Virus record (IMG/VR): IMGVR_UViG_3300003323_000540
Span: 1-64,000 of that record
DNA: 64,000 nt
From: a virus
Direction: 5' to 3' (one strand)
The notes beneath the pieces are model-generated. The model was not told where the DNA came from, made no database searches, and was given only the letters and a program-made list of their open reading frames with translations. The translations under genes were made by a program, and so were the position numbers. This document shows positions 7,504-55,080 of this stretch, in pieces. Position 1 is the first letter of the stretch; the number at the start of each line of letters is the position of its first letter.

Positions 7504-7512
7504 TAGAAGATT

Positions 7513-7827
7513 TTATTTTTCTCCCGCTACTTTCTTGCGAACAAAAAGAATTGCTTGGTTTTTACCTGATTGAACTACAAATCCTTTCAAATCCTTTGTT
7601 GCTGCTGTGAATTGCTCATCGCCATTTTCGCCTTTTTGCAGTTCTTCACGGAATTTATTCAATGATTGCGCTGAATAAATTTCATATAATGAACTTGGAT
7701 ACTGTTCTTCAAATTCAGACTTTATAATCAACTTCGCAGGCGCTTTTTTTGCATCCGCATAGCAAGAAGCTATTCTTTCCTTTGCTTCTTTTTGATGATC
7801 TTTAATAATGTCATTAAGATGAGCCAT
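7513..7827 (-). CDS. hypothetical protein
   Basis: Minus-strand ORF 9 nt upstream of the portal gene. No motif recognised. Confidence 0.55.
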   Translation of the reverse strand: MAHLNDIIKDHQKEAKERIASCYADAKKAPAKLIIKSEFEEQYPSSLYEIYSAQSLNKFREELQKGENGDEQFTAATKDLKGFVVQSGKNQAILFVRKKVAGEK

Positions 7828-20174: not shown

Positions 20175-20353
20175 CTATTTTTTAAAGAAAGTAGCCTATG
20201 TGAAGTCCTCATGGTTGTACTAAAACAACTTTCACGCACAAAATCATCATCTTTAATTCGCATTAAAATTTTATACCTCCTACTTGAAGCTCTAAGAACA
20301 GATATTGTTTCAACTTTTTCTACTCTTGCGTCAGATAATAAACAATTATTCAT
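20171..20353 (-). CDS. small Arg-rich basic protein
   Basis: 60 aa with 9 Arg. 4-nt overlaps on both sides. Confidence 0.4.
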   Translation of the reverse strand: MNNCLLSDARVEKVETISVLRASSRRYKILMRIKDDDFVRESCFSTTMRTSHRLLSLKNR

Positions 20354-33780: not shown

Positions 33781-34208
33781 GCTTTATAAGCCCTTACGGT
33801 TAATGTTACTCTTTTAGTGAAAAGATCGTGTATCTTAGACTCAAAATCATTGAAGTCTGTATGTTTAATTTCAATCAGGCCTCTATTTAACATTTCTTCT
33901 CCTAGCTTATAAGCGCTATTTCTAATTAAATAATCCAAATGTTTATTATCTGTTAATACTGTTCTATCCATAGTTATGGTTGGATAAGGCAGATGAAGAT
34001 AATGCTCCTTTGAAATATAGTCGAATGAGGATGTAAGAATTTGCGTATCGTATCTAATGTGCTCTATTCTTCCAAGAAATGACTTTTCTTTATCAGCTTC
34101 ATCTCGTGCTATATCCGCTGCATATTCAATCAGCCAATGATAAGTTTTGCAAATGAAGATTATAACAACACAAATAAATACTACAAATAATATAATGGTA
34201 AGGATCAT
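33768..34208 (-). CDS. N-terminally anchored hypothetical protein
   Basis: TM segment ILTIILFVVFICVVIIFIC. Sits between the sbcD-like and sbcC-like genes with 4- and 13-nt overlaps. Confidence 0.5.
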   Translation of the reverse strand: MILTIILFVVFICVVIIFICKTYHWLIEYAADIARDEADKEKSFLGRIEHIRYDTQILTSSFDYISKEHYLHLPYPTITMDRTVLTDNKHLDYLIRNSAYKLGEEMLNRGLIEIKHTDFNDFESKIHDLFTKRVTLTVRAYKACGI

Positions 34209-35296
34209 AAATTTTTGTTTAAAATTTTAAGTCCGAATTCAAAATCATCAATATCTTTTTTCTCTTTTCCCCATTCCTTAAAAGTTTCAATAATATCATT
34301 ATTTGTAAGTTGAATGGAATTGTTTTGAGCTATATCAGAAGGAACAAATTCTTTTTTGATCGCTTCTACTTTTACTAATGATTGAAGTTCTGCAATAATA
34401 GGCAATTTACTATCATGTATCTCTCCAGTGATTTTAAAGCGATATTTATTTCCTTCATCTTTTACAGCTCTTACTTCTGTGAGAACAGTTCTATCTAATT
34501 CTTCTGCACTTATATCAACAGTAATGTATTGAGGAAAAGAAAAATTGAAGAATTCATATGAAGCGTCATCATAAAGGATGGTCGCACCTTTATATAAATC
34601 TTCGCCAAAATTAGCTTGATGTGTTGATCCCGTATAAACAATATGCTTTCTATTACCAATTATTTGTCTATTGTGATAATGTCCAATCAATACAAGATCA
34701 AAAGGATCAAAAATAGATTGAGTGACGCCATTTTCAACTTTACTCCCATCATTATTTTTTATTTCATTTACCCCAATATGAGTTAGAAGAACGTTTCTTC
34801 TGCTTGTAGAAATATTAAGGAGGTCGAAGTATGTTTTGTAAGTCAAAGATTCATCATAATAAGAAACGAAATGAATTCTAAGACTATCTACATCAATATG
34901 ACGTGGCATTCCAAAACAAGTAAATGCTGGATGTGAATTAAATGGATCAAGAAATGATGTGGAAATTGTGTTATCTGTTTTATCATGATTCCCCGCAATT
35001 GCTATTATTTCAATTCCTCTTTCTTTTGCAATATTTAGAATTTCAGCAAGTGCATTAAGAACTATTTGAGTTTGTCCTTTTCTTGATGTAAGTATGTCTC
35101 CGAGATGGAATATTGTTTTAATTCCTAATTTATCGCAAAGATCAAAGGCTTGGATAAAAACAGAAAAATTAACCTCTATTGTTGATTCATTGAGATGGGT
35201 ATCCGCCAAGCAGACTGCAATAGGTTGTTTCATTGTTTTGGTTTTTTGTGTAAAAATTAGGGATTTGATAAAGCTCAAATCCATAGAAAAGCTCAC
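34205..35296 (-). CDS. sbcD: SbcD/Mre11-like (T4 gp47-like) nuclease
   Basis: CLADTH, HLGDIL, AGNHD, LLTHIG and IGHYH are metallophosphoesterase motifs I-V. A likelier start is MKQPIAV at 35233. Confidence 0.75.
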   Translation of the reverse strand: MSFSMDLSFIKSLIFTQKTKTMKQPIAVCLADTHLNESTIEVNFSVFIQAFDLCDKLGIKTIFHLGDILTSRKGQTQIVLNALAEILNIAKERGIEIIAIAGNHDKTDNTISTSFLDPFNSHPAFTCFGMPRHIDVDSLRIHFVSYYDESLTYKTYFDLLNISTSRRNVLLTHIGVNEIKNNDGSKVENGVTQSIFDPFDLVLIGHYHNRQIIGNRKHIVYTGSTHQANFGEDLYKGATILYDDASYEFFNFSFPQYITVDISAEELDRTVLTEVRAVKDEGNKYRFKITGEIHDSKLPIIAELQSLVKVEAIKKEFVPSDIAQNNSIQLTNNDIIETFKEWGKEKKDIDDFEFGLKILNKNL

Positions 35297-41310: not shown

Positions 41311-44300
41311 TTAAAAAATTTTCACATCAGTTTTGTCTACACTATAAATACAGTTCCTGTTGTTGAAGCTATCAAACTGTATTTTCCCATTCAGTATAAT
41401 TCCATTTCCATCTTTTCCGTCTACCAAAGTTTCATAATTTTTCCAGCAATCAGCCCACAATACAACATTAATTAAATCATTATTGTTGTCTATTGTCAAC
41501 TTAGCCATTTCCCCTTTCTTTGTCTTTACTTTCTTTATTTCGACTAAGAGACCGGCAACCACTACATGCTTATCTAAATTATCAGATAATTGTATTTTAT
41601 CGGCAGTTGCATAGTCACGATAATTAAAATCATTCTCATCTACTATTGTAGAGTAATCGAAAAATCCATATCCTGAAATTGATCTCTGCAATTTATACCA
41701 AAAGAATTCTTTCCATGCTTCTTTAGACTCTAATTCCTCTGGCAATTCAATACGCTGCAATTTACAAAACTCTCGAATCAAGTTTATTCTTTCTAATGGG
41801 TTTTTTATATTATGTAATTCATCAAAGCATCCAGAAAAAATAAGATGTTTTATTACTCTACTGTTTACTGATTTTCCTTTAATTCTTTGACAAAATTCTT
41901 CTAATGAAAAGAAGAATCCATTTTCAGTTCTTTCTTTAATGATCGCATTCAAAGATACTTCTCCTACTTGTTTTATTCTTCCAATTGACCAATAAATAGA
42001 ATTAGTATCCCAATCTGTATAAAATGTTTCTCGTGACTTGTTAATATCTGGAGGTTGCAATTTTATACCTTCAAATTTATTTATTTCACTTATTCTTTTT
42101 GTTATTTCATCATCGTTTGCGTATTGAAGTGATATAGTCCAAAATTGCATTGGATAGTAATACTTTAACCAAGCCGTTTGATAACCTATTAAAGAGTAAG
42201 CAACCGCGTGAGACAAATTAAAACTGTAACCAGCAAACGCTTCAATCTTATTCCAAATCTTATTTGCTTCAAATTCTGGACAACCATTTTTTATTGCACC
42301 TGCTACAAATTTATCTTTGTAGCTTTTCATTTTTTCAAGATCTTTTTTACCTGTAGCCTTTCTTACTCCATCTCCCTCTTCCAAAGTAAGTCCACCAACT
42401 TTTTGTGTTATAAAGATCGCTTGTTCTTGAAATACGTATAAACCAAACGTGTTCTTAGTCAATTCTTCTGTTCCCCAATCATATTCCGGTTTCTTTTTAC
42501 CATGCTTTAATTTTACATATTCATGGTGCGCCCCACTATCCATTGGGCCTGGACGATAGAGAGAAGTAATTGTGGCTAATTCAATAATTGTTTCGGGCTT
42601 TACATCTCTACAATAGGCCGTTAAACCATCAGTAGTAAATTGGAATACATCTTGTGTAAGACCTTTGGAAAATAGATCATAAATACTTTTATCAGTTAAA
42701 TCTATCTCCTGTAAATTTATTTTTTCACCTGTTTTTTCTTTGATTAGATCAATTATATCGTGAATCTTATCTAACTGACTTAATCCCAAAATATCCGCTT
42801 TTAGAAAGCCTGATTCATCTAATGGAGCGCCTTCCCATTCACTTACTATATAACCATCAATAATTTTACATGGAAACCAATCATAAATCTGTTTTTCCTT
42901 TGGAGTAATGATAATTCCAGAAGCATGGATGGAGGTATTTTTTGGTTGATTTAGGATTAAATCAATGTCATTTATTGCATTTGAATGAGTATTGAAATAG
43001 TTCTTCAATTTCTCATTTAATCCAGCTTCTTGGAAAAGAGATGTTATATCGCCATCACTTTTTTCTTCAAATATTTTCGAGTAGTAATTTATATTAGCTG
43101 GTTCTTCTCCATTAAATCTTAATATTTCTCTGAAAGCCGCTTTTGTTTTTAATACACCAAATGTTCCAATAGAGCTTACATTATGTTCTCCAAATCGTTC
43201 CTTCATGTATTGGAGGATTGTATCTCTATATCTTGATTCATAGTCATTATCTGCATCCGGCAATCCCTTTCCTACGCGACTTCTATTAAGAAAGCGCTCA
43301 AAGATCAAATTGTATTCCAGTGCATCTACTTTTGTTACATTGCAGAAATAAGCTATTAAAGAGCCTCCGATTGAACCTCTTCCAGTTCCAACAAAAATTC
43401 CATTCTCTTCGCACCAATTATTTATATCCCTGACTATCAAGAAATAATCTTGAAAGTTTCCTAAAGAAATAATTTCATATTCACTTTCAATTCTTGCTAT
43501 ATATTTATCTAAATCTTTTCCTTTTTGAATTACTCGCTTTTCTAGTCCCTCATTTATAACGTGCCAAAATAATTGCTCACTATCTGTGAATCCTGCCGCG
43601 ATTTCTTTTTCACTTAATGGATATTTTGGCAAATGTATTTGTCCAGTTTTTACTTTGAAAGTACATCCATCAACTATTTGATTTGTTCCATTTAATGCAC
43701 TTTCTAGTATTTCTATTGCGAATTCTTCCCCCTTTGAATTAAATAGTGTAATAGATTGCTCTATTATCTCCTCTAAAGATTTGAAATGTTGATCATCTGA
43801 TTGATAGTAGAATTCTCCTTTTCCTATGAAGTGAAGTATTTTCTTTACTCTACTATCTTCTTTATCCAAATAATAAGAATCGGTTATTAAAGCAAGCGGA
43901 ATCTCCTTGTAATTATTTAAACAATTTTTAAGGCAATTAAGGCAATGAAGATCTCTTTGAGGCGATTTGTATTCTACTGGATCATATTGAAAGTATATTC
44001 CAACAAATTTGGCATGGAATAATTCTGATACTATTGCATCATTTAACATTGTATCATTTTGAATGACTGCGTACAATCCTTCACTATGATCAATTAAAAA
44101 CGAATACTCTACATTTTGACCACTGTTATCAATGTTGATTCTCTTATGTATCTTAAGAAGATTTTCCCAACCACGTTCATTAGAAACATAAAGTTTTAAT
44201 TTAAAATCTTCCTTGCCTTTGCTTACTTGGATTGTTTCACCAAGAATAGGCTTTATTTTTGATTTAAGGCAGGCATTTTGGAATTTGAGTATTCCTGCAA

Positions 44301-44712
44301 GTGTATGCTTTTCGCTTAATCCTAGAGCCTCTATGCCAAGCCATTTAGCTTTTTCACACCAATCTTCATATCGTTTACTACCAATGCATAATTCATATCC
44401 GCCGTGTATACCAAGATGTGGAAAGCCAGCTATATCTTTAGCTGAACCTACATATTTTAGCTTATTCAACTTTACTTTATCTTCTTCTATTGGCGTATAA
44501 TATACTTTGCCACCAAAATAGAAACAGAAATAGTGGAAATCTATTTCCGGCAATTCAGTATTATCTAAAATAAGATTAAATTCTGAATCGAATATTTTGC
44601 CTTCTACTGGCGAAACACAAACATATACTTTGTCTTGAAGTTTAAAATGACTCTCCGTTATCCAATCAACTGAAAGATTGTTGGATTCTATCCACGATTT
44701 AATTTCTTGCAT
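41311..44712 (-). CDS. dnaE: DNA polymerase III alpha subunit (DnaE-type)
   Basis: 1133 aa with an N-terminal PHP domain (HLGIHGGYEL). Palm/fingers motifs are GRGSIGGSLIAYFCNVTKVDALEYNLIFERFLN, LPDADNDY and FLKADILGLSQLDKI. A C-terminal OB region is present. Confidence 0.9.
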   Translation of the reverse strand: MQEIKSWIESNNLSVDWITESHFKLQDKVYVCVSPVEGKIFDSEFNLILDNTELPEIDFHYFCFYFGGKVYYTPIEEDKVKLNKLKYVGSAKDIAGFPHLGIHGGYELCIGSKRYEDWCEKAKWLGIEALGLSEKHTLAGILKFQNACLKSKIKPILGETIQVSKGKEDFKLKLYVSNERGWENLLKIHKRINIDNSGQNVEYSFLIDHSEGLYAVIQNDTMLNDAIVSELFHAKFVGIYFQYDPVEYKSPQRDLHCLNCLKNCLNNYKEIPLALITDSYYLDKEDSRVKKILHFIGKGEFYYQSDDQHFKSLEEIIEQSITLFNSKGEEFAIEILESALNGTNQIVDGCTFKVKTGQIHLPKYPLSEKEIAAGFTDSEQLFWHVINEGLEKRVIQKGKDLDKYIARIESEYEIISLGNFQDYFLIVRDINNWCEENGIFVGTGRGSIGGSLIAYFCNVTKVDALEYNLIFERFLNRSRVGKGLPDADNDYESRYRDTILQYMKERFGEHNVSSIGTFGVLKTKAAFREILRFNGEEPANINYYSKIFEEKSDGDITSLFQEAGLNEKLKNYFNTHSNAINDIDLILNQPKNTSIHASGIIITPKEKQIYDWFPCKIIDGYIVSEWEGAPLDESGFLKADILGLSQLDKIHDIIDLIKEKTGEKINLQEIDLTDKSIYDLFSKGLTQDVFQFTTDGLTAYCRDVKPETIIELATITSLYRPGPMDSGAHHEYVKLKHGKKKPEYDWGTEELTKNTFGLYVFQEQAIFITQKVGGLTLEEGDGVRKATGKKDLEKMKSYKDKFVAGAIKNGCPEFEANKIWNKIEAFAGYSFNLSHAVAYSLIGYQTAWLKYYYPMQFWTISLQYANDDEITKRISEINKFEGIKLQPPDINKSRETFYTDWDTNSIYWSIGRIKQVGEVSLNAIIKERTENGFFFSLEEFCQRIKGKSVNSRVIKHLIFSGCFDELHNIKNPLERINLIREFCKLQRIELPEELESKEAWKEFFWYKLQRSISGYGFFDYSTIVDENDFNYRDYATADKIQLSDNLDKHVVVAGLLVEIKKVKTKKGEMAKLTIDNNNDLINVVLWADCWKNYETLVDGKDGNGIILNGKIQFDSFNNRNCIYSVDKTDVKIF

Positions 44713-45444
44713 TTATATGGTTCTCATTATTTCCAGCCATCTCTTACAAAGAAGAGTTACATATATCGAGTTTTCTAATCCATAATTTCCTATCGAAAAT
44801 CCATCATTTACTTCTATCAGAATTGTATCATAATAATTATGTTTTTTATTATATTCAATTCCAAAATCTATGGCATATCCAGATGGAGCATCTTTATAAT
44901 CTAATATCGCATGCTTAATTATATCTACATCTGGAAATATTGTAAAATCTCCAGCATAATGCTTTATTCCTTTTAATTCTCCTTCTATAACATAGCATCT
45001 GTATTCCGATATAATATTGACAACTTCGGAAGTCATTGCTTTTGTTTCTAAAGGCAAATCATGAAAGAAAGTAAGGTGTTTGGCATTGCTTACAACACCA
45101 GCAACGAATTCTTTACTTTTCCCATTCGGCTTTACAAATATTGGAAACTTATCTGTTTTTAAAAATTCACCGATTGTCATATACTCAATAGTTCTTTGAG
45201 CATATTTCATTAAACAACTTGGAATATTAATAGCTTGTTTTGGAGGCAATCCAAGTTTTTGAAAAAATGCATTAGTATTTTCTATTGATGCTACTAATAT
45301 AACATTCTTTCTTACCGGAACTTCTTCAATATTTTCAAAAAAGAAAATATTGGCTTGTCTGTCTCTAAATCCTAAATAAGCTGAAACAGCCCAATCATCA
45401 AATGGAAATCCATTTAAGGATTGAATATAAATTTCATAATTCAT
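44713..45444 (-). CDS. ATP-grasp fold protein (R2K/DUF4343-like)
   Basis: PIFVKPNGKSKEFVAGVV, SEYRCYVIEGELKGIKHY and ILIEVNDGFSIGNYGL give the K-loop, the central beta-hairpin and the E-x-N Mg site of ATP-grasp enzymes. Confidence 0.5.
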   Translation of the reverse strand: MNYEIYIQSLNGFPFDDWAVSAYLGFRDRQANIFFFENIEEVPVRKNVILVASIENTNAFFQKLGLPPKQAINIPSCLMKYAQRTIEYMTIGEFLKTDKFPIFVKPNGKSKEFVAGVVSNAKHLTFFHDLPLETKAMTSEVVNIISEYRCYVIEGELKGIKHYAGDFTIFPDVDIIKHAILDYKDAPSGYAIDFGIEYNKKHNYYDTILIEVNDGFSIGNYGLENSIYVTLLCKRWLEIMRTI

Positions 45445-45698
45445 TTCTTCTCGAAATATTTCATTGCAATATAATGCATACCTATAGATCCTATAACAGA
45501 GCCTACTAGATATGTTATCATTAAATCAATTCTATTGAAATTTAATACAACTTGTCTAATAACTAAAAGCCAGATCCCATTTGAAAGCGTTGCGGCGATT
45601 CCATGATATAAAATTGATTTGCTATTGCGTGCACGACTTACCAAAGTAAAACTTGCATTTTGCAAGATTACTAACAGAAGCATTTTGATTATTTCCAT
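45441..45698 (-). CDS. small three-TM membrane protein
   Basis: 85 aa, hydrophobic. 4- and 10-nt overlaps. Confidence 0.5.
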   Translation of the reverse strand: MEIIKMLLLVILQNASFTLVSRARNSKSILYHGIAATLSNGIWLLVIRQVVLNFNRIDLMITYLVGSVIGSIGMHYIAMKYFEKK

Positions 45699-46849
45699 TT
45701 ATGTAAATATTTTTTGAATTTGTGTTTATGATGTTTTTTAGTCTCTTCTTCATTGTCGAAGTCATTGGTTACTGCCCACCAGCATACTCCAACATTTACT
45801 AAAACCGTAAGTATAAATATCCACACGGTTTGCTTCATTGTAGGCTCAATAGTTAAATAATCAAAATCATGAAAATTCTTTCTTTCATAGTTTTTCTTTA
45901 TTTCTACATTGGTGAAATCAATTATTTCTGAAAGATTCAATGTATTTCCTATTTGATCTTCAATGTGAGTTCTGATATCAACTTTTGAATCCTCTCTGTC
46001 AGTCCAAGAGAAATCATATCCCCATTTTATAACATTGTTACTATCAACGCCAATGCAAATTACAAATTCATTCTTGTTTCCGCCTTCCCAATAGTTTTCT
46101 TGCATTATTGCCGCTTCACGCGGCTTGTTTTTAAAGACTAGTATGAATACATGAATTTGTTTTGTAGAACCAAATCTTGAATTTAAAATCTCCAGCTTCT
46201 TTTCTGCATAGCTGTCATTGTATCCAAGAATAACTCTTTGCTTATATAAATTATAGATCGCCGGATACTCATACAGACCATATTGTTTTATTTCACTTGT
46301 ATCTGGTTTATCAAAGTGATAAACATTAACGCAAGCTTTTGGCCTATTTTCATATCCATTTGGAATAACAACTGATTCTAATGTTTGATCTTCGCCCCTC
46401 CAAGCACCATAATACATATCTCCATCATTGGTGTAATAGTCACGATGGAGGTCTTTAAATACAGCATCCACCTTAAATTGGCGTAGCAATCTATTGTATT
46501 CTTCTCTTGAGATATTAAATCTTCCTAGCGTAGTTTCAGCAGTCCAATATTCTGGATGATAAGATACATAAGAACAATCATAAAAACATGTAGATTTTCC
46601 ACAAGGACGCGAGCAAGTTCTGTGGATATATTCATTCCAATCTTGAAAATACCGCACTTCCTTTACATATCCTCCCAAATATTCAACATCATATGTAAGG
46701 GAGTTGATGCAAATTAATTTTGCGATCAATATGAAGATTACACTGGAAATGATGGGAACGGTTAGTTCCCACCATACTATATTTCGTCTAAAAAAGGCTA
46801 CTAGTATTATTGCAGCCAATAACGGAATTAAAAAGCAAAAGTAGACCAT
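45689..46849 (-). CDS. Cys-rich membrane protein (2 N-terminal TM, 1 C-terminal TM)
   Basis: N-terminal TM helices, an extracytoplasmic domain with CSRPCGKSTCFYDC, and a C-terminal TM segment VWIFILTVLVNVGVCWWAV followed by a basic tail. Confidence 0.55.
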   Translation of the reverse strand: MVYFCFLIPLLAAIILVAFFRRNIVWWELTVPIISSVIFILIAKLICINSLTYDVEYLGGYVKEVRYFQDWNEYIHRTCSRPCGKSTCFYDCSYVSYHPEYWTAETTLGRFNISREEYNRLLRQFKVDAVFKDLHRDYYTNDGDMYYGAWRGEDQTLESVVIPNGYENRPKACVNVYHFDKPDTSEIKQYGLYEYPAIYNLYKQRVILGYNDSYAEKKLEILNSRFGSTKQIHVFILVFKNKPREAAIMQENYWEGGNKNEFVICIGVDSNNVIKWGYDFSWTDREDSKVDIRTHIEDQIGNTLNLSEIIDFTNVEIKKNYERKNFHDFDYLTIEPTMKQTVWIFILTVLVNVGVCWWAVTNDFDNEEETKKHHKHKFKKYLHKWK

Positions 46850-47382
46850 TAATTAAATGGGTTTGCATTGTCATCTTTTCCGTTAATAAATACTTTTTCT
46901 GTTTCTGCAGAAGTAACGATCTTTAATTCAGGAACATCTTTGCCACCTAAAAACAATGTCGCCGGAAATACTCCAATTAAGTCTTTAAGCTCTTTATGAA
47001 TTGAAATTAACTTCTTTTGATTATTTGTAAATTTTTCCCGCTGTGATTCAATTGTATTCATCAACTGTTTATACAAGCTTGGATCAAGATTTGGATTCGA
47101 TTCGGTTATCCATTGCATCATCTTACCAGATCCCTCCTTATATCTGGCATCCATAATTTCAGTATAAATATTTTCGAAATCACTGGAATATTTCTCACTA
47201 ACTTTTGCTTGTCCAAAAATAACTTTCTTCATTTCATCGTGGATAGCTTTATCAACTGATACTTGGGCATCATATTGATTTTTTAATCTTACATATTGAT
47301 TGTTGTAAGAAATGTAAAGGAAGATTCCTAAAGATGCTACAGTAAATATAACTACTGTAAATAAAATGGCAAATAATTTCAT
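46849..47382 (-). CDS. LemA family membrane protein
   Basis: N-terminal TM, then YNNQYVRLKNQYDAQVSVDKA. ESNPNLDPSLYKQLMNTIESQREKFTNNQKKLISIHKELKDLIGVFPATLFLGG follows the LemA pattern E.YP.Lk....f..Lq..l...E..i...R..yN.....yN..i..fP....a...G. Confidence 0.55.
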   Translation of the reverse strand: MKLFAILFTVVIFTVASLGIFLYISYNNQYVRLKNQYDAQVSVDKAIHDEMKKVIFGQAKVSEKYSSDFENIYTEIMDARYKEGSGKMMQWITESNPNLDPSLYKQLMNTIESQREKFTNNQKKLISIHKELKDLIGVFPATLFLGGKDVPELKIVTSAETEKVFINGKDDNANPFN

Positions 47383-47411
47383 AATAAATTCTCGTTTAAG
47401 TTTTAAATTTT

Positions 47412-48035
47412 TTAAAGTATTCGACTTATATCGTCTTGATGCAAAGGTATAATGTTTCCCGTTTCTTTGAAATAAATATCAGCATTTTTGTTCTCCATAT
47501 CATATCTTTTTAACACTCCTATGCCATTGTTTCTACAATTGAATGTATTTCCTGGATAGTAGTAATAAAATTCATCTGTTTTACGATGATCGGCTCTTTT
47601 AACTTGTTCTAAGGAAAGAACGGATGTTAATTTACTTCCGGCAACTAATACTGTTATTTCTTTTTTACTCTTGTTTACGTGTTCGCTGATTGCGTATTCT
47701 CCCGAATCTATGATTTCTACTACTGTCCCTCTGAAAGGAAATAATAGTTGTTCATCAGTAACATTTAAAATGTTATAGATAAGTTTTGGGAAACCAAACT
47801 TTGGAACTATATCCTGCCATACGCGAATATATTCTTCGCCATCATCAAGAATATTTTCTAATCTATTTTTCTTTGAAAGAGTTCTGATTGCATCTTCTTT
47901 CTGATACATCTTGTCTTTAAAGTAATCTTTATCACCTCTATGAATATAAATCTGGCTTCTTATTTCCAAGCAAATATATTCTTGTTGTAAAGCTTTGAAA
48001 AAATCATGTGTTGATATATCCCTTGTTTTTGTCAT
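47412..48035 (-). CDS. hypothetical protein
   Basis: Minus-strand ORF with a 4-nt overlap with the primase gene. No motif recognised. Confidence 0.55.
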   Translation of the reverse strand: MTKTRDISTHDFFKALQQEYICLEIRSQIYIHRGDKDYFKDKMYQKEDAIRTLSKKNRLENILDDGEEYIRVWQDIVPKFGFPKLIYNILNVTDEQLLFPFRGTVVEIIDSGEYAISEHVNKSKKEITVLVAGSKLTSVLSLEQVKRADHRKTDEFYYYYPGNTFNCRNNGIGVLKRYDMENKNADIYFKETGNIIPLHQDDISRIL

Positions 48036-49012
48036 TCTAAATTACTGTGAAGATGTGTCATGTTAAACTCCAAATACCCTACTGAATTATCCATTAATTC
48101 CAACGTCTCATCTCTATTAAGATCATTTGGATCTTTACCATTCAAATATCCTACTTTAATATTAAAATAAAGGGATGCCGTTGCAGCTATATCTTTTACT
48201 ATTTCTAATACATCCGATTCAAACCATAACCAGATATTTTTTACTCCCTTTCTTTTTAATAATTCAATCTGATAAATTGAAAGTTTTGCTCCAAAAGTTG
48301 CACAACATTTTATCTCATCTATTTCGTAGAGCGACAGATTCACATCTGTTTTAGTCTTACTAAAAAGACCTTCTACTAAAATAACATCCGTTGTCTTTCC
48401 CTCAACAATTTCATCTAATCCAAACAGCATTTTTGCAAAATCTGTCTTTGAATTATTGTATCGTAAATATACTTGTTTATTGTCTTTATTTTTCTTGTTA
48501 AAATTGTCGATCCACTCTTTACTTTTCTTAGATCTACTTATGTAACCGGTAAGTTTATGATTTTGATAAATTAATATTGTAACATAATCTTTATGAATTA
48601 AAGATGTGCCAACATGATATTTTTCAAATTGTTCATCGGTGAATCCGCGCTCCCTTAAATATTCATCATCATACGCTCTCCTCCATAGCATTGGAGGCTG
48701 AATTTCTTCTAAAGACAAATCTAAACTTGGATTGCTTATTTCCAGATCTCCAACCAATTTCTCTTGAACATCGAAATCAAATTCGGACACAAATTCTTTT
48801 GTTCTTCCTAAATATTTTAAAAGAGTGAAAATGTTGAAGTGTGCTCCACATTTATTTTTTCTGTTACAAGCAGATGGATGATTGTCTTCTTGAAGAAGGA
48901 GGTAGAATTCGTTTTCCCCGCACATTGGACAAATAGCATAAACATATTTGCCATTTGAACTTTTGCCGGTTATACTAAGTAATGAAGAAAGTTGATTATA
49001 ACTTAATTTCAT
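48032..49012 (-). CDS. DNA primase (zinc finger + TOPRIM, DnaG/T7 gp4-like)
   Basis: CPMCGENEF...ACNRKNKCGAHFN is the zinc-binding domain. DVILVEGLFSK provides the TOPRIM Glu and IWLWFESDV the acidic cluster. Confidence 0.7.
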   Translation of the reverse strand: MKLSYNQLSSLLSITGKSSNGKYVYAICPMCGENEFYLLLQEDNHPSACNRKNKCGAHFNIFTLLKYLGRTKEFVSEFDFDVQEKLVGDLEISNPSLDLSLEEIQPPMLWRRAYDDEYLRERGFTDEQFEKYHVGTSLIHKDYVTILIYQNHKLTGYISRSKKSKEWIDNFNKKNKDNKQVYLRYNNSKTDFAKMLFGLDEIVEGKTTDVILVEGLFSKTKTDVNLSLYEIDEIKCCATFGAKLSIYQIELLKRKGVKNIWLWFESDVLEIVKDIAATASLYFNIKVGYLNGKDPNDLNRDETLELMDNSVGYLEFNMTHLHSNLE

Positions 49013-49020
49013 TTCTTTGA

Positions 49021-49680
49021 TTAAATATGATGATCGTAAGGCAAAGAAATGTCGCTCACATGTCGCAAGCTCATAATTCTCATTACATCAAAAAATGAAT
49101 ACGGTTTATAATCGTTTCCATCTACTCCTACATCCATAGCTTTTCCTTTCATTATCTTAGCGCCTTTAGAAAGGTGTACGTGACCAAATAGATGAATAAC
49201 ACCTCTCTTCATATCTTTCCAGCTGCATACCGGATAATGGTTCAAAAAGAATCTTTGCTTCTCATTCAATCCCATATTTCTCAAGGATCTGTAATTCAGC
49301 TCAAGTTCAAGATTTCCGATTGAAATGCCCGCGAATAGTTCTTGAATATTATCCTTGTTTCTCTCTATATGATGATCATGATTTCCGAGAACTATGTAGA
49401 TATTCTTGCAAGTCAATCTTTCTCTAAATTTCCTGATATTATCAAATCCATTAAAGCTCCAATCTCCTAAATGGAATAATGTATCATCTGGAAGAACTAC
49501 GGCATTAATATTATTAACTAATACGGTATTCATTTCTTCCAAAGAGTTGAATTGTCTTTGACCCTTACTTTCATTGTCTTCACTCCATTCAGAAGTTGCT
49601 GAACAAATATTTTTATGATCATAATGAGTATCGGAGGTAAACCAGACATTGGAGCCTGGCAGAACATTTATTTTAAGCAT
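49021..49680 (-). CDS. calcineurin-like metallophosphoesterase (lambda-phosphatase/Pnkp-phosphatase-like)
   Basis: FTSDTHYDH, HLGDWSFNG, LGNHDHH, LNHYP and LFGHVH are motifs I-V in order. 219 aa. Confidence 0.7.
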   Translation of the reverse strand: MLKINVLPGSNVWFTSDTHYDHKNICSATSEWSEDNESKGQRQFNSLEEMNTVLVNNINAVVLPDDTLFHLGDWSFNGFDNIRKFRERLTCKNIYIVLGNHDHHIERNKDNIQELFAGISIGNLELELNYRSLRNMGLNEKQRFFLNHYPVCSWKDMKRGVIHLFGHVHLSKGAKIMKGKAMDVGVDGNDYKPYSFFDVMRIMSLRHVSDISLPYDHHI

Positions 49681-50116
49681 ATTTCGTTTTGTCTATTTTA
49701 TCGTAATTCCTTTTCATATCTCTTATTACTCTAAAGGGTATCCATTTACCTGTCTTTAAATACCTACGTATATTTCTAATATAGGATTTAATTAGACTGC
49801 AATCAAAGAACATTACTCTAACTGTATATCCCTTAGGGCACTTTTTAATCAATTCATTTATATACTTCTCTTTGCAATTAGTATTATCAATAATAATATT
49901 CAATTTGCAGCCAATCGAAAGATCAAGATGTTTGTCAAATACCCTAGTAACTTCTTTCTCATTTTCATGAGTATGCACATATGGCGTCATGAAAAAACTT
50001 GCTCTTATATCATCTCTACTAATAATATAGTAACAATGAGCATACCTATAATTTTTAGCAAAAGAGCTTTTGCCGCTGCATGGTATTCCAGAAAGTATTA
50101 TTATTTCATTGTTCAT
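49673..50116 (-). CDS. P-loop polynucleotide 5'-kinase-like protein
   Basis: ILSGIPCSGKSSFAK is the P-loop, followed by IISRDDIRASF. This is the Asp/Arg pair arrangement seen in T4 Pnk (GSGKS ... D..R). Confidence 0.6.
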   Translation of the reverse strand: MNNEIIILSGIPCSGKSSFAKNYRYAHCYYIISRDDIRASFFMTPYVHTHENEKEVTRVFDKHLDLSIGCKLNIIIDNTNCKEKYINELIKKCPKGYTVRVMFFDCSLIKSYIRNIRRYLKTGKWIPFRVIRDMKRNYDKIDKTKYA

Positions 50117-50730
50117 ATACAGTACAATAAAGTTGGATTGTTTTTATGAACATCATATTGGCCCCCAAATACTTTTTGAAATGCATCCAGATTAAATGGA
50201 TTAGTTATCAAATGCCAGCCATTCTTGGTTTCAATTCTAGCAATGACTTTATATTTATTGTTACTTATTTGCTGTCTTTGATAATCATTAATCCACTCTT
50301 CAACAATATCAACTTGTTGTTGCATTTTGGTATCAATATCTACCAACCATCTTTTATCCATTTCATTATGGTAATTACCCAAAACAGAGTCATAAGCTTT
50401 TCTAATTCCATAGAAATCTTTATTAGACATTTGATTTGCAACTTTTTGTAAAAGCTGAAACGCCGCTTTTTCAAAGTTCCTTGGATTTAAATTAATACAA
50501 GCTCTAGCATTAAAAACTTCGCACAATTTGATCATTTCTTCTTTGTGCATAAAGAAATGCTCTACACTAGTAATATAATATGCCTTTATCAGTCTTGAAT
50601 TGTTGTTGCTTCCTCCAAGTCTGGTTCCTTGTGCATGATCTTTCTTCCTTTGCAAGATCTGAATGAAATAAAAAGTTTGATCATTCGGAAATTCCAAAAG
50701 TTTAGATATTTCATTGAAATTATCGATCAT
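50113..50730 (-). CDS. hypothetical protein with AEP/primase-polymerase-like motif order
   Basis: RWLVDIDTK (hhhDxD), ETKNGWHLITNPF (sG.H) and QYDVHKNNP (hD) occur in the order of archaeo-eukaryotic primase motifs I-III. Weak, by-eye assignment. Confidence 0.35.
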   Translation of the reverse strand: MIDNFNEISKLLEFPNDQTFYFIQILQRKKDHAQGTRLGGSNNNSRLIKAYYITSVEHFFMHKEEMIKLCEVFNARACINLNPRNFEKAAFQLLQKVANQMSNKDFYGIRKAYDSVLGNYHNEMDKRWLVDIDTKMQQQVDIVEEWINDYQRQQISNNKYKVIARIETKNGWHLITNPFNLDAFQKVFGGQYDVHKNNPTLLYCI

Positions 50731-52037
50731 ACAACGGCTGTTTGCTCTTCCTCAATAGAAACAATGCCTGCATCCAAATCCTTGGTTTCGCGCTCCAAGA
50801 AGCGGCGGCTTTTTAATTTATAAGTTGAATATGTTTGTAGGCCATCAATTCTAACGCAAATACCTTCTGCTGGAATTCCATTTCCGCAATACTCGCAATC
50901 CTTCTCTAAATAAATATCTTGTAAATTTTTGAGTAATTGTTCTTGGAAAATATTTTCCTCTGACGTATGAGCTAATTCAATTGCCTTTCCGTAAAATAAT
51001 TCCTTTACATACTCCAATGAGTACTTATTGCAATATTCTTTGATCTGATTCCAATTGTATTCAATTACAGACCCATCTGGCTTTGTATAAGTAATGCGAT
51101 AAATTAAAGTCTTATGTGAAAGCTCTTCACATCCATACGCATATCCCTTTTGAATCTCTTTTCCTGATTTCAAATATCCAACAATCTCTCCATATAAAGT
51201 GACTCCTTGTTCAATTTTATCCTTCAATTCTTCATTGGCCGTTGCCCAAATATCTTCATTGTAATATCCAAGAGTTACGCTTTCATTAATGTATTGATTC
51301 TTTATTACCGAACGAGAAGAATAAAGATTGTCATATACTTTGTCAACTACTTTAACTCCAAAAAATTTGGCAACCTTTTCTTTCAGATTAAGTTTCTTCT
51401 TAATTAGGACGTTGGCAAACACTGCCGATGTTCCATGCCATTTGTCTGTAATAACAATTAAATCATTTGGCTTAAAGTGATGAACATTTTTTGCAAAATG
51501 AGATGTATCGTTATGGAATCTAAATTGATTTGGAATCAACTTATCGAATGCTTTTAATTTCTTATTATGCCTTGATTCTTTCGAATCTCCATTTCCTTGC
51601 AGACGAACGATTTTATACTTTTTGCAAATATTGATTCCATCAATATCAGTAAATTCTTCTCCAGCGCTTGAGAATGATACAGAGACCACATTATCCAATG
51701 AACTTACTGGAATAACAAATCCAGTGCTAATAATTCCCTTAAATTTGATAGACTTTACGCGCCCCGTATCTTCAAAGAAACCTTTTTTAGTTTTGTCTTT
51801 ATTATAATCAGAATGTCGGTATAAATTATTTTCATAAAGAAATAGCGGTGAAATAGAACATTCTGCTGGAAAGAAGAGATACAATTCTTCCTCTGGAGAA
51901 TCTTTGCCTATAAGGCAATCATTCCCAAATACTGTTACGCGAACGAGATTATCCAATCCCTCAACTTTTTGTTTTGTTGGCAGCTTAATTACCTGACATG
52001 CATAATTAACTGAATCTTCTCTAATAGTCATTTTCAT
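50727..52037 (-). CDS. ATP-dependent RNA ligase (Rnl2-like nucleotidyltransferase core with about 190-aa N-terminal domain)
   Basis: Motif I is TDKWHGTS (KxHG as in T4 Rnl2), III is LYGEIVGY, IV is AEGICVRIDG and V is YKLKSRRF, all in canonical order. Confidence 0.7.
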   Translation of the reverse strand: MKMTIREDSVNYACQVIKLPTKQKVEGLDNLVRVTVFGNDCLIGKDSPEEELYLFFPAECSISPLFLYENNLYRHSDYNKDKTKKGFFEDTGRVKSIKFKGIISTGFVIPVSSLDNVVSVSFSSAGEEFTDIDGINICKKYKIVRLQGNGDSKESRHNKKLKAFDKLIPNQFRFHNDTSHFAKNVHHFKPNDLIVITDKWHGTSAVFANVLIKKKLNLKEKVAKFFGVKVVDKVYDNLYSSRSVIKNQYINESVTLGYYNEDIWATANEELKDKIEQGVTLYGEIVGYLKSGKEIQKGYAYGCEELSHKTLIYRITYTKPDGSVIEYNWNQIKEYCNKYSLEYVKELFYGKAIELAHTSEENIFQEQLLKNLQDIYLEKDCEYCGNGIPAEGICVRIDGLQTYSTYKLKSRRFLERETKDLDAGIVSIEEEQTAVV

Positions 52038-52051
52038 AGTTTTTCGATTTT

Positions 52052-52321
52052 TTATATTCCTAAATTCATTCCATTTTTATTTACTTCTACCCAGCATTTG
52101 AAAAATAAGAATTCAAATCCGAGCATATAAGAACCAACTAAATTATCTTTCCATTTACTTGGATTCTTAAAATCATTAGTTCCAACTATCTTAATTTTTC
52201 TAAACCATAAAGATATCTCCCATCTATGCCATTCATGCCTATATAGAGTATCGCCGGTCTCAAATCTATGTCTTAAGCCACAAGTTATTCTTATATTCTT
52301 TATTTTAAAAACCTTGATCAT
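52052..52321 (-). CDS. hypothetical protein
   Basis: Minus-strand ORF, W/K/F-rich. 4-nt overlap with the helicase gene. Confidence 0.45.
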   Translation of the reverse strand: MIKVFKIKNIRITCGLRHRFETGDTLYRHEWHRWEISLWFRKIKIVGTNDFKNPSKWKDNLVGSYMLGFEFLFFKCWVEVNKNGMNLGI

Positions 52322-53697
52322 GATTTTATTGCATTTCGTATTACCCTTTTATTCTCATCATCCCAAAATCTTCGTTTGGTTTCTGCCAGATCTATAAATC
52401 TACCTAATTCTCGTTTTTGAACTATTGAATATGTTGATTCATAACTCTTTATGGCATAATGTCTCAACTTCTCCTCGTGTATGCGCATTATATCATTATC
52501 ATTCTCATCGTCTGTTTGATTCAGAGTAAAACAATATGCGAATGGATCAATAGTTGCCTTTAAATTCGATATATTATTTCGCGTTATTACAAAATTTGGA
52601 TTATTCCAAAATTCCTTGCTTACATCGCTAGCTTGCGTTACGGCTGCTACAGCTACATCAAATTCAGTGGCTATATTTATGATCTTTTCAGAATTAGCCT
52701 TTTTCATTGCTGACGTACCTTCTTGATTTGTACCGTATTTTTTACCATCTCCAGGGGTAAACGATTCCAGCAAGTCAAATAGCACCAATCCTATGTCATG
52801 TTCTTTTAACAAATCTATTAAAACATTTCTACAGTCCAATAAAGAAGCGCTATGAAATTGTTTAAATACATGAACAAATATTTCACCACATTGGGATAAA
52901 TAAGCCTCATGCGCTTTTTTAATTTTTTTTAGATCGGCATTGTCAAAATTCCCCTCCCTAATATTATACATGTCCACTCCACTCCACCAAGAATCATATC
53001 CATCTTCAACTTCCTTTTGCGTAGAATCTCCTGCTGCTAAATGTAAAACGTTTATGCCCCTAAAAGATGCAGATGCACCAAGCGATCTAAGGCATGTTGT
53101 CTTTCCAACCCCACTACGCGCTATTGCCAGTAGTCCAGTTCCTCTATCTACTCCGCCTCTGGTGTGATAATCAAAAGCAGGTATTCCAGTTGGAACCTTT
53201 CTTAGGTTATAATCTCTTTCAGCTCTTTCTTTTTGTCTCTTGTCGAAATCACCATAGATTCGAGAATACATTTTTCGCTTTAAGGAAAAATTATGCAACT
53301 CCTCATAATCGGCATAAGCTTCTTTATAAGCTGCATCAATATCTCCTTTCTGGAAGGTTTCAGCCGCCTTTTTATGAGCATGGATAAATTTTGCCCTTCT
53401 TATATAATCTTCAAATGAAGAGATAATGTCATCTTTTTTATCATGAACATTTGCATCCCTTATTTTGCCAATTAGCTCTAATGTTTCTTTCTGCGTTACA
53501 TTTTGACTAACCAAACCCAATGTAGGGCTTTTATTCGTGGCTGCATTATAATCAAATAGGTATTTAAATATATGCTTATACGGTTCGCCTTTAATATATG
53601 AGTAACTTAAATGAGGTCTTACGACACTTAATATTTCTGGAGATATAATGCAAGCCTTTGCTAAATCTATTAAAAAATCGTCTTTTAAATGATTCAT
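52318..53697 (-). CDS. DnaB-like replicative helicase
   Basis: GLLAIARSGVGKTTCL (Walker A) and GLVLFDLLESF (Walker B) sit in a RecA-like C-terminal domain. The helical N-terminal domain is about 170 aa. Confidence 0.75.
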   Translation of the reverse strand: MNHLKDDFLIDLAKACIISPEILSVVRPHLSYSYIKGEPYKHIFKYLFDYNAATNKSPTLGLVSQNVTQKETLELIGKIRDANVHDKKDDIISSFEDYIRRAKFIHAHKKAAETFQKGDIDAAYKEAYADYEELHNFSLKRKMYSRIYGDFDKRQKERAERDYNLRKVPTGIPAFDYHTRGGVDRGTGLLAIARSGVGKTTCLRSLGASASFRGINVLHLAAGDSTQKEVEDGYDSWWSGVDMYNIREGNFDNADLKKIKKAHEAYLSQCGEIFVHVFKQFHSASLLDCRNVLIDLLKEHDIGLVLFDLLESFTPGDGKKYGTNQEGTSAMKKANSEKIINIATEFDVAVAAVTQASDVSKEFWNNPNFVITRNNISNLKATIDPFAYCFTLNQTDDENDNDIMRIHEEKLRHYAIKSYESTYSIVQKRELGRFIDLAETKRRFWDDENKRVIRNAIKS

Positions 53698-54509
53698 GAT
53701 GCATTATCTGGTATAAGATTTTTGTTTTCATATTTTTCCTTAAGCTTTAAATACAAATCATATTTTCTATCTAAATACAAATCACAATTTTCATAAAGTA
53801 TTGAAATACATTTAAAAGCAGATACTCCGGAATAATTAATTTGATAAATATTTTTTAACTTAATGATATTTGGCTTGTCCTTACTTCTTAATTTTATTCT
53901 ACAATAATTAAAAAAATATTCTCTTATAAATAAAATAGTATTATATGTTCCAAGAATATTTATAGTATCTATTGAAGTGCGCGTGATACAACCATCGCCA
54001 TCAAAATAGCCTCTAATGAAATCAAGTAAAAATATTTCTGGAATTTTATTAGAAATATGGCAGGTCAGTGATTTTTTATTTTTAATATCAAAATTATTCA
54101 ACAAATCATTTACTAATTGAGATGAAGATATGCTAATACTAAAATAATTTTCTTTTTCTATAATTTTACCATCAAATTGAAGAGAGGATTTAAATTTTTC
54201 AAGATGGTGATAATCTTCTTTTTGTAATTTAATTTCAACCGTAAATCTTTTATTTGTTCTTATATATCCGTCTGCCAATAAAAATCCAGCCCAATAACAA
54301 TTTTCTTTTGAAAATATAGAAAAGAAAAAATGACTAACTTTAGTCAAAGGAGTTCTTTTTCTTAATGTAATATTTTCTTTCATTAAAATCCTCTGAATAA
54401 TTGTGCGATGCAAATTATATTTTGCAGACAGTTCCTTATTGCTTAAAAAATTAAATATATAATCATTTATAACTTCATTTTTCATTCTTTCTCCTAAATC
54501 ATCCTTCAT
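53694..54509 (-). CDS. double-motif LAGLIDADG homing endonuclease with N-terminal HTH
   Basis: WAGFLLADGYI and IRGYFDGDGCI are two LAGLIDADG motifs about 95 aa apart. N-terminal HTH is SNKELSAKYNLHRTIIQRIL. Confidence 0.75.
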   Translation of the reverse strand: MKDDLGERMKNEVINDYIFNFLSNKELSAKYNLHRTIIQRILMKENITLRKRTPLTKVSHFFFSIFSKENCYWAGFLLADGYIRTNKRFTVEIKLQKEDYHHLEKFKSSLQFDGKIIEKENYFSISISSSQLVNDLLNNFDIKNKKSLTCHISNKIPEIFLLDFIRGYFDGDGCITRTSIDTINILGTYNTILFIREYFFNYCRIKLRSKDKPNIIKLKNIYQINYSGVSAFKCISILYENCDLYLDRKYDLYLKLKEKYENKNLIPDNAS

Positions 54510-55080
54510 AGCCGCGTTTTTTATACGTTTTTGGAAATTTCTTTTGCAGTAATGTTTTGCATTCTTTTTTCATTTCACAACTAATACAATTTACCGATCT
54601 GTGATTGTAAAGAGTTGTATTGATAAGGCAATTAAATAATCTTGCCTCTCCATAAAATCTTAATTTCTCATTTTCCTCCGCTGGATCTAATTTGTTATTA
54701 ATTAATTCCTCTTCATGAAGTTCGCTTTTAAGATCATCAATTATTATGTCATATTCTCTTAAAAAATTATCTACATAATAATCACCATCGGTATTTCTGT
54801 TTACAAAATTATTAAACATTTTTTTACCAATTATCCAATTGAGCGATATTTTTCTTTGGGTTATCTGCGATACTCTTTGTGCAAAACACCATGAAAAATA
54901 TTGAATAAAAAATGATGATCCCAATCCTTCCGTTCCAGGGTAATAAACAGAAAGGAGTTTCAAAAAGTTATCAATTAATTTCCCTTGATTATTTACAGAC
55001 TCATCTAGCTTGAATGTCGTTTTGTAAATGCGATTGTAGAAATAATCAAAGATATGCGCAATCATTTTCCTTTGTGTCAT
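54499..55080 (-). CDS. hypothetical protein
   Basis: Minus-strand ORF with C-terminal CISCEMKKEC. No family recognised. Confidence 0.5.
   Translation of the reverse strand: MTQRKMIAHIFDYFYNRIYKTTFKLDESVNNQGKLIDNFLKLLSVYYPGTEGLGSSFFIQYFSWCFAQRVSQITQRKISLNWIIGKKMFNNFVNRNTDGDYYVDNFLREYDIIIDDLKSELHEEELINNKLDPAEENEKLRFYGEARLFNCLINTTLYNHRSVNCISCEMKKECKTLLQKKFPKTYKKRGYEG

Follow-up and report, generated by a model that had tools for sequence, protein, structure and literature searches.

We describe here a compact cassette of four genes that probably encodes a pathway to heal and seal broken RNA, most likely tRNA, with the activities carried by separate small proteins. The cassette lies in a 64,000-nucleotide stretch of viral DNA, referred to below as the window (positions 1 to 64,000 of the IMG/VR record IMGVR_UViG_3300003323_000540), from an uncultured phage of about 117 kb, about 53 kb of which fall outside the window; proteins identical to those encoded here are on a JGI metagenome contig of 117,464 bp. 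It combines a predicted RNA ligase of the Rnl5 type, a candidate polynucleotide 5'-kinase and a putative metallophosphoesterase with a conserved uncharacterised gene, here called gene X, whose product we tentatively place in the pathway as an accessory enzyme. RNA-repair kits with which phages respond to tRNA-cutting host defences are already known, and, read in this way, the cassette is a further example of such kits and not a new principle. Its least ordinary part is gene X, to which the initial annotation of this DNA had given no function. The four genes are as follows:

50727..52037, minus strand, ligase: predicted Rnl5-type ATP-dependent RNA ligase, 436 amino acids, ATG start
50113..50730, minus strand, gene X: uncharacterised conserved protein (phrog_14949), 205 amino acids, ATG start
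49673..50116, minus strand, kinase: predicted stand-alone polynucleotide 5'-kinase domain of the T4 Pnk type, 147 amino acids, ATG start
49021..49680, minus strand, phosphoesterase: predicted aq_1665-type calcineurin-like metallophosphoesterase, 219 amino acids, ATG start

These four open reading frames (ORFs), and the overlaps of 4, 4 and 8 nucleotides at the ligase/X, X/kinase and kinase/phosphoesterase junctions, agree with those first described.

According to its predicted structure, the ligase is an Rnl5-type RNA ligase, and not a DNA ligase, an Rnl1 or a Pnkp ligase. It matches the RNA_ligase family PF09414 (E value 1.5e-8) and the 'RNA ligase' group phrog_968 (9e-50). Ligase motifs I, III, IV and V, recognised in the initial annotation, are all present, and in an alignment of 41 homologues with 50-65% identity they are invariant as D198-K199-W-H201-G202-T-S204, Y282-G-E284-I-V-G287, E391-G392-x3-R396 and K407-L-K409-x3-F413, respectively. 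In the AlphaFold model (mean predicted local distance difference test score, pLDDT, of 87.6), an OB-like, all-beta N-terminal domain of about 190 amino acids (all-beta over residues 1-140, with a weak match to the OB domain PF21189) precedes the C-terminal nucleotidyltransferase domain, and the chain ends about 25 residues past motif V, with no C-terminal appendage. In the fold search, the model could be matched to the Naegleria gruberi RNA ligase NgrRnl from end to end, N-terminal domain included, and the top 13 matches were all structures of this enzyme (E 4e-14 to 2e-12; 418-445 aligned columns; template modelling score, TM-score, up to 0.70 when normalised to the length of NgrRnl), the best being 6vt1 and 5cot (4e-14 to 3e-13). 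The trypanosome editing ligase REL1 and T4 Rnl2 came next (1e-7 to 1e-6), and weaker matches were obtained with DNA ligases (E at least 6e-4) and with the ligase domain of Clostridium thermocellum Pnkp (CthPnkp; E 0.018), so that the protein groups with RNA ligases and not with DNA ligases, as had been proposed.

The comparison with T4 Rnl2 made at the outset held in one part. The K-x-H-G signature of motif I is there, in the form K-W-H-G, as in T4 Rnl2; the N-terminal domain marks the protein as a member of Rnl5, the nick-sealing class, instead (PMC4408790). NgrRnl and DraRnl define this class by an N-terminal signature domain and the lack of a C-terminal appendage (PMC4408790), and the domain of about 190 amino acids is therefore regarded as the Rnl5 hallmark. 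Against the DRB0094 model TIGR02306, the ligase scored 24.7 bits (9e-6) and did not reach the curated cut-off of 151 bits; it is therefore treated as a distant, phage-specific branch of Rnl5 and not as a DRB0094 equivalog. Phage homologues of DraRnl have been noted in the literature before (PMC4408790). The Rnl5 enzymes characterised to date seal 3'-OH/5'-phosphate nicks in duplexes only when the 3'-OH strand is RNA, accept DNA as the 5'-phosphate strand and have no known natural substrates, and their discoverers proposed that they seal RNA patches in DNA repair (PMC4408790).

The kinase is, from its sequence, most readily classified as a stand-alone 5' kinase of the T4 Pnk type. It matches PF13671 (4.5e-15) and phrog_505 'polynucleotide kinase' (6e-22). 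Its best solved relatives are Capnocytophaga Pnkp1 (4xrp; 1.4e-7), the tRNA kinase PSTK (4e-4) and T4 Pnk (4e-4), and adenylate-kinase-type matches had E>0.1, which points to a polynucleotide kinase, as initially suggested, and not to a nucleotide kinase. The P-loop G10-x4-G15-K16-S17 and the following S33-R34-D35-D36-I37-R38, the features that had evoked T4 Pnk, can be aligned with that enzyme residue for residue. In an alignment spanning residues 4-137, K16/S17 fall on T4 K15/S16, R34-D35-D36-I37-R38 matches T4 R34-D35-D36-Y37-R38 position by position, and the region of R114/R117/R118 falls on the T4 'RNSKR' segment, which holds the lid arginine. The T4 segment R34-D35-D36-Y37-R38 contains the catalytic residues Asp35 and Arg38. 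With its 147 amino acids, the protein is the kinase domain alone and has no C-terminal HAD (DxDxT) phosphatase domain; no HAD_PNKP homologue was found in the 64-kb window, and TIGR04075 matches the kinase only (E 0.0035). Pnkp1, by comparison, is a T4-Pnkp homologue with a HAD phosphatase domain (PMC4411300).

In the phosphoesterase, all five calcineurin-type motifs that had been reported are present, namely D17xH19, G72-D73, G99-N100-H101-D102, H148 and G166-H167-x-H169; among 14 homologues, motifs II-V do not vary, and H19 of motif I is nearly invariant. The protein matches PF00149 (2.6e-7) and phrog_547 (8e-43). Its sole solved relative is the uncharacterised Aquifex protein aq_1665 (1xm7; 1.7e-10 with the single sequence, 1e-22 with the family profile), and neither lambda-phosphatase nor Pnkp phosphatase chains appeared at E<=1 in single-sequence and profile searches of all PDB chains. 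It would thus be an aq_1665-type enzyme, not detectably of the lambda-phosphatase or Pnkp type, with membership of the superfamily as the common element. One weak PADLOC match and one weak NCBIfam 'anti-phage phosphoesterase' match express similarity at the superfamily level only. Studies of CthPnkp describe the use of a metallophosphoesterase for 3'-end healing (PMC2190708, PMC3675462), and this chemistry of the superfamily, together with the gene linkage, suggests that the window's enzyme may act on 2',3'-cyclic-phosphate or 3'-phosphate ends. The phosphoesterase was rejected as the phage's Mre11/SbcD nuclease, since a separate SbcC/SbcD pair is encoded at 31909-35296. A third metallophosphoesterase-type gene of the window, beside those for the cassette phosphoesterase and SbcD, encodes a protein of 442 amino acids (15116-16444, minus strand) whose C-terminal half weakly matches calcineurin-like phosphoesterases. 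Among cultured phages, Flavobacterium phage vB_FspM_immuto_3-5A (L099, region 5883-7654) has the closest homologue of the cassette phosphoesterase (52% identity); it directly follows a run of four tRNA genes (Cys, Ser, Glu and Gln) and has no ligase nearby.

The linkage of these genes was assessed in 80 IMG/VR loci seeded with the ligase (the loci compared are given L-numbers), whose ligases are 32-59% identical to that of the window. They form 27 clusters at 70% ligase identity, and the ORFs within 8 kb of the ligase were labelled by iterated profile searches. A Pnk kinase is found in 14 of the 27 clusters, and an aq_1665-type phosphoesterase, a HAD_PNKP phosphatase, X and a DNA-ligase-type protein in eight each; DNA polymerase A occurs in seven, a PolyA_pol/CCA-adding-type nucleotidyltransferase in five and Thg1 in two. 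Ligase, kinase and phosphoesterase are contiguous in five divergent relatives (L006, L007, L013, L073 and L085), in keeping with the original view of the three as a set. In many other lineages, a complete Pnkp of the T4 type (AAA_33 + HAD_PNKP) takes the place of the split set, and Pnkp itself is split into kinase and HAD ORFs in L011 (9403-10408), L008 (1156-2020) and L137 (7546-9024). The first description of the cassette as a split Pnkp-like system is therefore retained for its set of activities and abandoned for Pnkp ancestry or membership, given an Rnl5-type ligase, a T4-Pnk-type kinase and an aq_1665-type phosphoesterase.

In many phage lineages, the Rnl5-type ligase is thus accompanied by Pnk kinases, CCA-adding enzymes and Thg1, and by phosphatases that belong to two unrelated superfamilies. 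CCA-adding enzymes and Thg1 are tRNA-specific, and because they recur in the neighbourhoods we consider tRNA the likely substrate. The cassette gives a natural context for the Rnl5 ligases, whose company points to tRNA.

The family assignments, conserved catalytic residues, fold and gene linkage are established; for the substrates, the order of steps, the part of X and the host nuclease we infer the following scheme. A cut in RNA would leave a 2',3'-cyclic phosphate (or a 3'-phosphate) and a 5'-OH. The metallophosphoesterase would convert the 3' end to a 3'-OH, the Pnk-type kinase would turn the 5'-OH into a 5'-phosphate, and the ligase would adenylylate itself at K199, transfer adenosine monophosphate to the 5'-phosphate and seal the break. 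Because it is of the Rnl5 type, the ligase would most likely work on ends held in duplex or folded RNA such as tRNA. X would contribute an accessory step, in which ends are trimmed or rebuilt before they are sealed. Such a pathway would probably serve to preserve functional tRNA or other RNA in the face of cleavage by a host defence or a toxin, and the initial proposal that the cassette counters a host anticodon nuclease would be plausible by analogy.

For gene X, we consider a role as a further enzyme of the RNA-repair pathway, the fourth, most likely. Its sole profile match is phrog_14949, a group of unknown function; Pfam, NCBIfam, PADLOC and the PDB sequences gave no match to X alone or to profiles of 45 or 120 sequences, and no Pfam match was found among 120 members of its family. 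The family is large, with 958 close homologues and at least 2,113 clusters at 50% identity. The homologues, all named 'hypothetical protein' at the source, are nearly always stand-alone proteins of about 200 amino acids, and the few longer ones contain no Pfam domains, so fusions offer no functional hint. Among 120 sequences with 30-55% identity, R28, K30, D131, G171 and H173 are invariant, and N4, Y21, R76, N82, W128, D133, P199 and T200 nearly so. The predicted fold (mean pLDDT 91.1) is alpha+beta, with a ferredoxin/RRM-like C-terminal half, in which D131xD133 closes strand one of a beta-alpha-beta-beta-alpha-beta unit and H173 is part of strand three. No solved structure matched at E<0.1, the best small ones being generic ferredoxin-like domains, and matches among predicted viral structures were to uncharacterised phage proteins only.

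The motif-like pattern D131xD133 / G171xH173 / D193 may offer a hint to the chemistry. Its spacing, D-x-D, G-x-H and D, resembles that of motifs I-III of primase-polymerases, and the layout in the model recalls palm/primase-polymerase active sites, which is too little to file X there. LigD polymerase domains gave TM-scores of 0.31-0.33 at E 0.7-1.1 and probability 0.13-0.18, which is not significant, and the 'DNA primase' PHROG was matched weakly (E 0.06) by two of the 120 family members. Several other identities were tried and rejected. X is not a diverged copy of the HAD, CCA, Thg1, kinase, ligase or phosphoesterase neighbours (hhalign probability at most 8%). The other folds considered are all represented in the PDB, and the absence of fold matches at E<0.1 there speaks against Tpt1/KptA, against Pol-beta nucleotidyltransferases (RlaP, CCA-adding) and Thg1, against 2H phosphoesterases, whose H-x-T/S motif pair is also missing, and against HAD proteins, as the order of strands and helices is not alternating beta-alpha. 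The cRec receiver-like domain of jumbo phages (PMC7824862) was dismissed as well, for a topology that is not receiver-like and for want of a CheY-like fold match.

Our best guess is that X may be a metal-dependent nucleotidyltransferase, or else a phosphodiesterase, that would trim or rebuild ends before sealing. If X does belong to the pathway, a missing step would be added to the healing-and-sealing scheme. A bolder proposal, to which we give little weight, is that X founds a new enzyme family and is a regular fourth part of phage RNA-repair kits, a tiny palm/primase-polymerase-like nucleotidyltransferase that rebuilds lost nucleotides. Were this so, filling by X would let the nick-sealing Rnl5 enzyme act, and RNA, or RNA-patched DNA as with LigD, would be healed, filled and sealed in turn. 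X is a new lead, as a large phage family that offers a clear set of candidate catalytic residues and recurs between RNA end-healing and end-sealing genes, in many phages unrelated to one another.

The neighbourhoods of X were examined in a second sample, for which 80 IMG/VR loci were fetched; in all, 84 loci fall into 58 clusters at 70% identity, again with 8-kb neighbourhoods. At least one repair-type gene is found in 31 of the 58 clusters, with the phosphoesterase in 21, the ligase in 15, the kinase in 12 and HAD in six; Prs-like genes occur in seven and NAMPT-like genes in four. In several arrangements X is directly coupled to repair genes: ligase-X-Pnkp in L104, which repeats the gene order of the window; ligase-kinase-X-HAD in L137/L138, where X stands exactly between the two Pnkp halves; phosphoesterase-X-phosphoesterase in L118/119; CCA-X in L121, L123 and L165; X-CCA in L159 and in Cellulophaga phage phi17:2; and Thg1-X in L160. 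The most recurrent immediate neighbours are Pnk/HAD and the aq_1665-type phosphoesterase, in four clusters each, and most other families occur there once.

NAMPT-X was seen in L006, L008 and L090. A NAMPT-like gene directly followed by X, with a gene resembling those for phosphoribosyl pyrophosphate (PRPP) synthetase nearby, occurs in L006 (4607-7008), L007 (3349-6870), L008 (3159-7008), L089-L092 and L116. The NAMPT-like and PRPP-synthetase-like pair has the appearance of the phage pathway for the reconstitution of nicotinamide adenine dinucleotide (NAD+). In the relatives, RNA-repair and NAD-salvage genes occupy one common variable island; the window has neither NAD gene (NAMPT, Prs). In the cultured Cellulophaga phage phi17:2 (L001, 5001-9404), a single co-directional string consists of X, a tRNA nucleotidyltransferase, a protein with a PF00644 annotation, that is, a PARP-type ADP-ribosyltransferase, a hypothetical protein and an ATP-dependent DNA ligase, and thus mixes tRNA-repair and NAD-using enzymes around X.

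The relative closest to the window (L004/L005) is syntenic with it from the tail genes to DnaE, and its X is 71% identical. The arrangement there is DnaB-X-primase, without ligase, kinase or phosphoesterase at the site, and compared with this relative the window has two blocks around X, one made up of an ORF of 89 amino acids and the ligase, the other of the kinase and the phosphoesterase. That the closest relative does without these three genes is in line with an accessory, host-dependent role and not with one in core replication. A Thg1 gene (L004 3918-4625) occupies the position of the window's LAGLIDADG endonuclease in this relative. Thg1 is an enzyme of tRNA 5'-end repair, a 3'-5' polymerase.

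The cassette stands inside a replication module, as had been noted, with DnaB, a DnaG-type primase and a DnaE-type polymerase nearby. The genes of this setting are as follows:

53694-54509, minus strand, LAGLIDADG homing endonuclease, directly upstream of DnaB and overlapping both of its neighbours
52318-53697, minus strand, DnaB-type helicase, flank of the cassette
52052..52321, minus strand, 89-amino-acid ORF between DnaB and the ligase, overlapping DnaB by 4 nucleotides and separated from the ligase by a gap of 14 nucleotides
48032-49012, minus strand, DnaG-type primase, flank of the cassette
44713-48035, minus strand, four genes between the primase and DnaE: one of 207 amino acids with no family; one of 177 amino acids, phrog_1383 'virion structural protein'; one of 386 amino acids, phrog_2087, with a hydrophobic N terminus; and one of 243 amino acids, phrog_7313
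41311-44712, minus strand, DnaE-type polymerase (Pol III alpha), replication set
31909-35296, minus strand, SbcC/SbcD pair, replication set
20350-21822, minus strand, UvrD-type helicase, replication set

All long genes of the window are on one strand, and the GC skew is negative throughout. The small ORF at 52052..52321 has no family match and no homologue among the first 98 loci; since the closest relative lacks it, it probably arrived together with the ligase, and it may be a spurious ORF. The replication module has a second variable site of insertion at 44713-48035, where the closest relative has just one ORF of 62 amino acids. Scans of the window for consensus promoters and terminators gave the same counts as shuffled sequence, the promoters of Bacteroidota being of a type outside the consensus set, and a search for near-identical DNA among cultured phages gave no match. 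With DnaG, DnaE, SbcCD and a superfamily-1 helicase, the window has a gene complement similar to that reported for the proposed 'Gratiaviridae' of Bacteroides (PMC8008677). Among cultured phages, those of Cellulophaga and Flavobacterium have the nearest homologues of X and the phosphoesterase, which makes a host from the Bacteroidota likely.

Tight packing is not unique to the four genes, since 12 co-directional genes (55080->45689) follow one another with junctions of -11 to +29 nucleotides. The overlaps thus mark the cassette as part of an extended array of replication genes and speak for co-transcription with these, not for a separate unit.

Several observations weigh against RNA repair as the function of the cassette. 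The tight packing is shared with the flanking replication genes. No tRNA genes were found in the 64-kb window, nor was a CCA-adding enzyme, and a Hen1-like partner was not seen among the 10 genes of 47412-55080, the region scanned for it, none of which matches a methyltransferase; homologues of the relatives' CCA-adding, HAD, NAMPT, Prs, Thg1, ADP-ribosyltransferase (ART, PARP-like) and L045-type DNA-ligase proteins are all missing from the window. The identity between the ligase and NgrRnl is a mere 12-14% across the fold alignments, and, given the tolerance of Rnl5 for a DNA 5'-phosphate strand, a role of the ligase on RNA only would not be guaranteed. The phosphoesterase family occurs in 1,320 cultured-phage records, against 379 that contain a homologous ligase, and our literature search found no functional work on aq_1665; the enzyme may be a generalist. 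As for X, 27 of its 58 clusters lack any repair-type gene, it adjoins NAD-salvage genes (Prs/NAMPT), DNA ligase and DNA polymerase A elsewhere, and the closest relative keeps it without the other three genes, so that X may stand outside the repair pathway.

Some of these points would fit a second reading, in which the module repairs nicks and gaps in DNA or at RNA-DNA junctions during phage replication, like LigD with a polynucleotide kinase. Ends with a 5'-OH or a 3'-phosphate would be cleaned by the kinase and the phosphoesterase, X would add a short ribonucleotide patch as a small enzyme of the primase-polymerase kind, and the Rnl5-type ligase would seal the nick between an RNA 3'-OH and a DNA 5'-phosphate. 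T4 Pnk-type kinases act on DNA too, and the location of the genes between DnaB and primase, exactly that of X in the closest relative, would suit such a function. So would the position of the homologous ligase and polynucleotide kinase of Microbacterium phage Alleb just downstream of a DNA helicase, and that of the L045 ligase/kinase between DNA ligase and DNA polymerase A. The primase-polymerase-like spacing of the X motifs and the LigD domains among the weak fold matches point in the same direction, but the LigD match is not significant. Similarly, the window has no L045-type DNA ligase, but a DNA ligase may lie in the approximately 53 kb outside it. The acceptance of a DNA 5'-phosphate strand by Rnl5 and the proposal of RNA-patch repair by its discoverers (PMC4408790) are set against the recurrence of tRNA-specific CCA-adding enzymes and Thg1 in the same neighbourhoods, and against a closest relative that replicates without ligase, kinase and phosphoesterase. 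On balance, we consider DNA repair an unlikely function of the cassette.

That the genes are mere neighbours in a mixed auxiliary or counter-defence patch, each acting alone (the phosphoesterase or X, for example, degrading immune signalling nucleotides or ADP-ribose derivatives, and the kinase acting on nucleotides), would agree with the lone X of the closest relative, with the highly variable immediate neighbours of X, with its frequent place after NAMPT/Prs-like NAD-reconstitution genes, with the spread of the phosphoesterase family in phages that have no ligase, and with the superfamily-level PADLOC and NCBIfam matches, but appears improbable in view of the polynucleotide-kinase catalytic motif of the kinase and its nearest solved relatives among RNA/tRNA kinases, of the recurrence of ligase, kinase and phosphatase (HAD or metallophosphoesterase) across ligase lineages 32-45% identical to the window's, and of Pnk/HAD and aq_1665-type phosphoesterase as the most frequent direct flanks of X. 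We thus favour an RNA-repair cassette, which can be compared with known systems as follows.

LigD, a bacterial protein with ligase, primase-polymerase and 3'-phosphoesterase domains, cleans ends, adds ribonucleotides and seals at a 3'-ribonucleotide. The cassette would share this logic of clean, add and seal only if X were a polymerase; it differs in that its ligase and phosphoesterase come from other families and X has no significant match to the LigD polymerase domain.

The Pnkp-Hen1 system of Clostridium thermocellum and the Pnkp1-Rnl-Hen1 system of Capnocytophaga gingivalis have the same activity set of kinase, phosphatase and ligase. The latter is likewise split, and no solved structure is a closer relative of the window kinase than its Pnkp1; the phosphatase of Pnkp1 is a HAD domain. 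In bacterial Pnkp, the kinase, a lambda-phosphatase-like metallophosphoesterase and the ligase form a single polypeptide, in contrast to the three ORFs of the window. The window ligase is of another type than bacterial Pnkp/Rnl ligases, to judge from its fold matches (0.018 for CthPnkp vs 4e-14 for NgrRnl), and the window phosphoesterase has no sequence match to the CthPnkp phosphatase.

With NgrRnl and the Rnl5 class, the ligase shares the order of an OB-like N-terminal domain and a nucleotidyltransferase domain, with no C-terminal appendage. It is about 100 amino acids longer, with insertions, and has K-W-H-G as motif I in place of K-x-D-G; NgrRnl has D172 at this position, as indicated by the names of PDB mutants.

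Cultured actinobacteriophages, for example Mycobacterium phage Rumpelstiltskin (gp84/gp75) and Microbacterium phage Alleb (gp73/gp75), have genes annotated as 'RNA ligase' and 'polynucleotide kinase' close to each other. Their ligases, among the 379 phage records, are homologous to that of the window (32% identity over 97-98% of the length), and in Alleb the ligase/kinase pair follows a DNA helicase and precedes exonucleases. Their kinase, however, is a full-length kinase-phosphatase of about 310 amino acids, and both X and a neighbouring phosphoesterase of the aq_1665 type are missing from the annotated regions examined.

In phage T4, too, healing and sealing fall to separate polypeptides, Pnkp and Rnl1/Rnl2, which are the classic response to the PrrC anticodon nuclease. 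The kinase domain of T4 Pnkp is homologous to the window kinase, with a full-length alignment and the catalytic residues kept, and many relatives of the cassette carry a kinase with HAD_PNKP beside the same ligase. The window differs from the T4 system in a kinase without the HAD domain and a separate metallophosphoesterase in its stead, in a ligase that is predicted to be of the Rnl5 type and not Rnl1 or Rnl2, and in the extra conserved gene X between ligase and kinase. Jumbo phages encode ATP-dependent ligases together with kinases and HAD or, more rarely, calcineurin-like phosphatases (PMC7824862).

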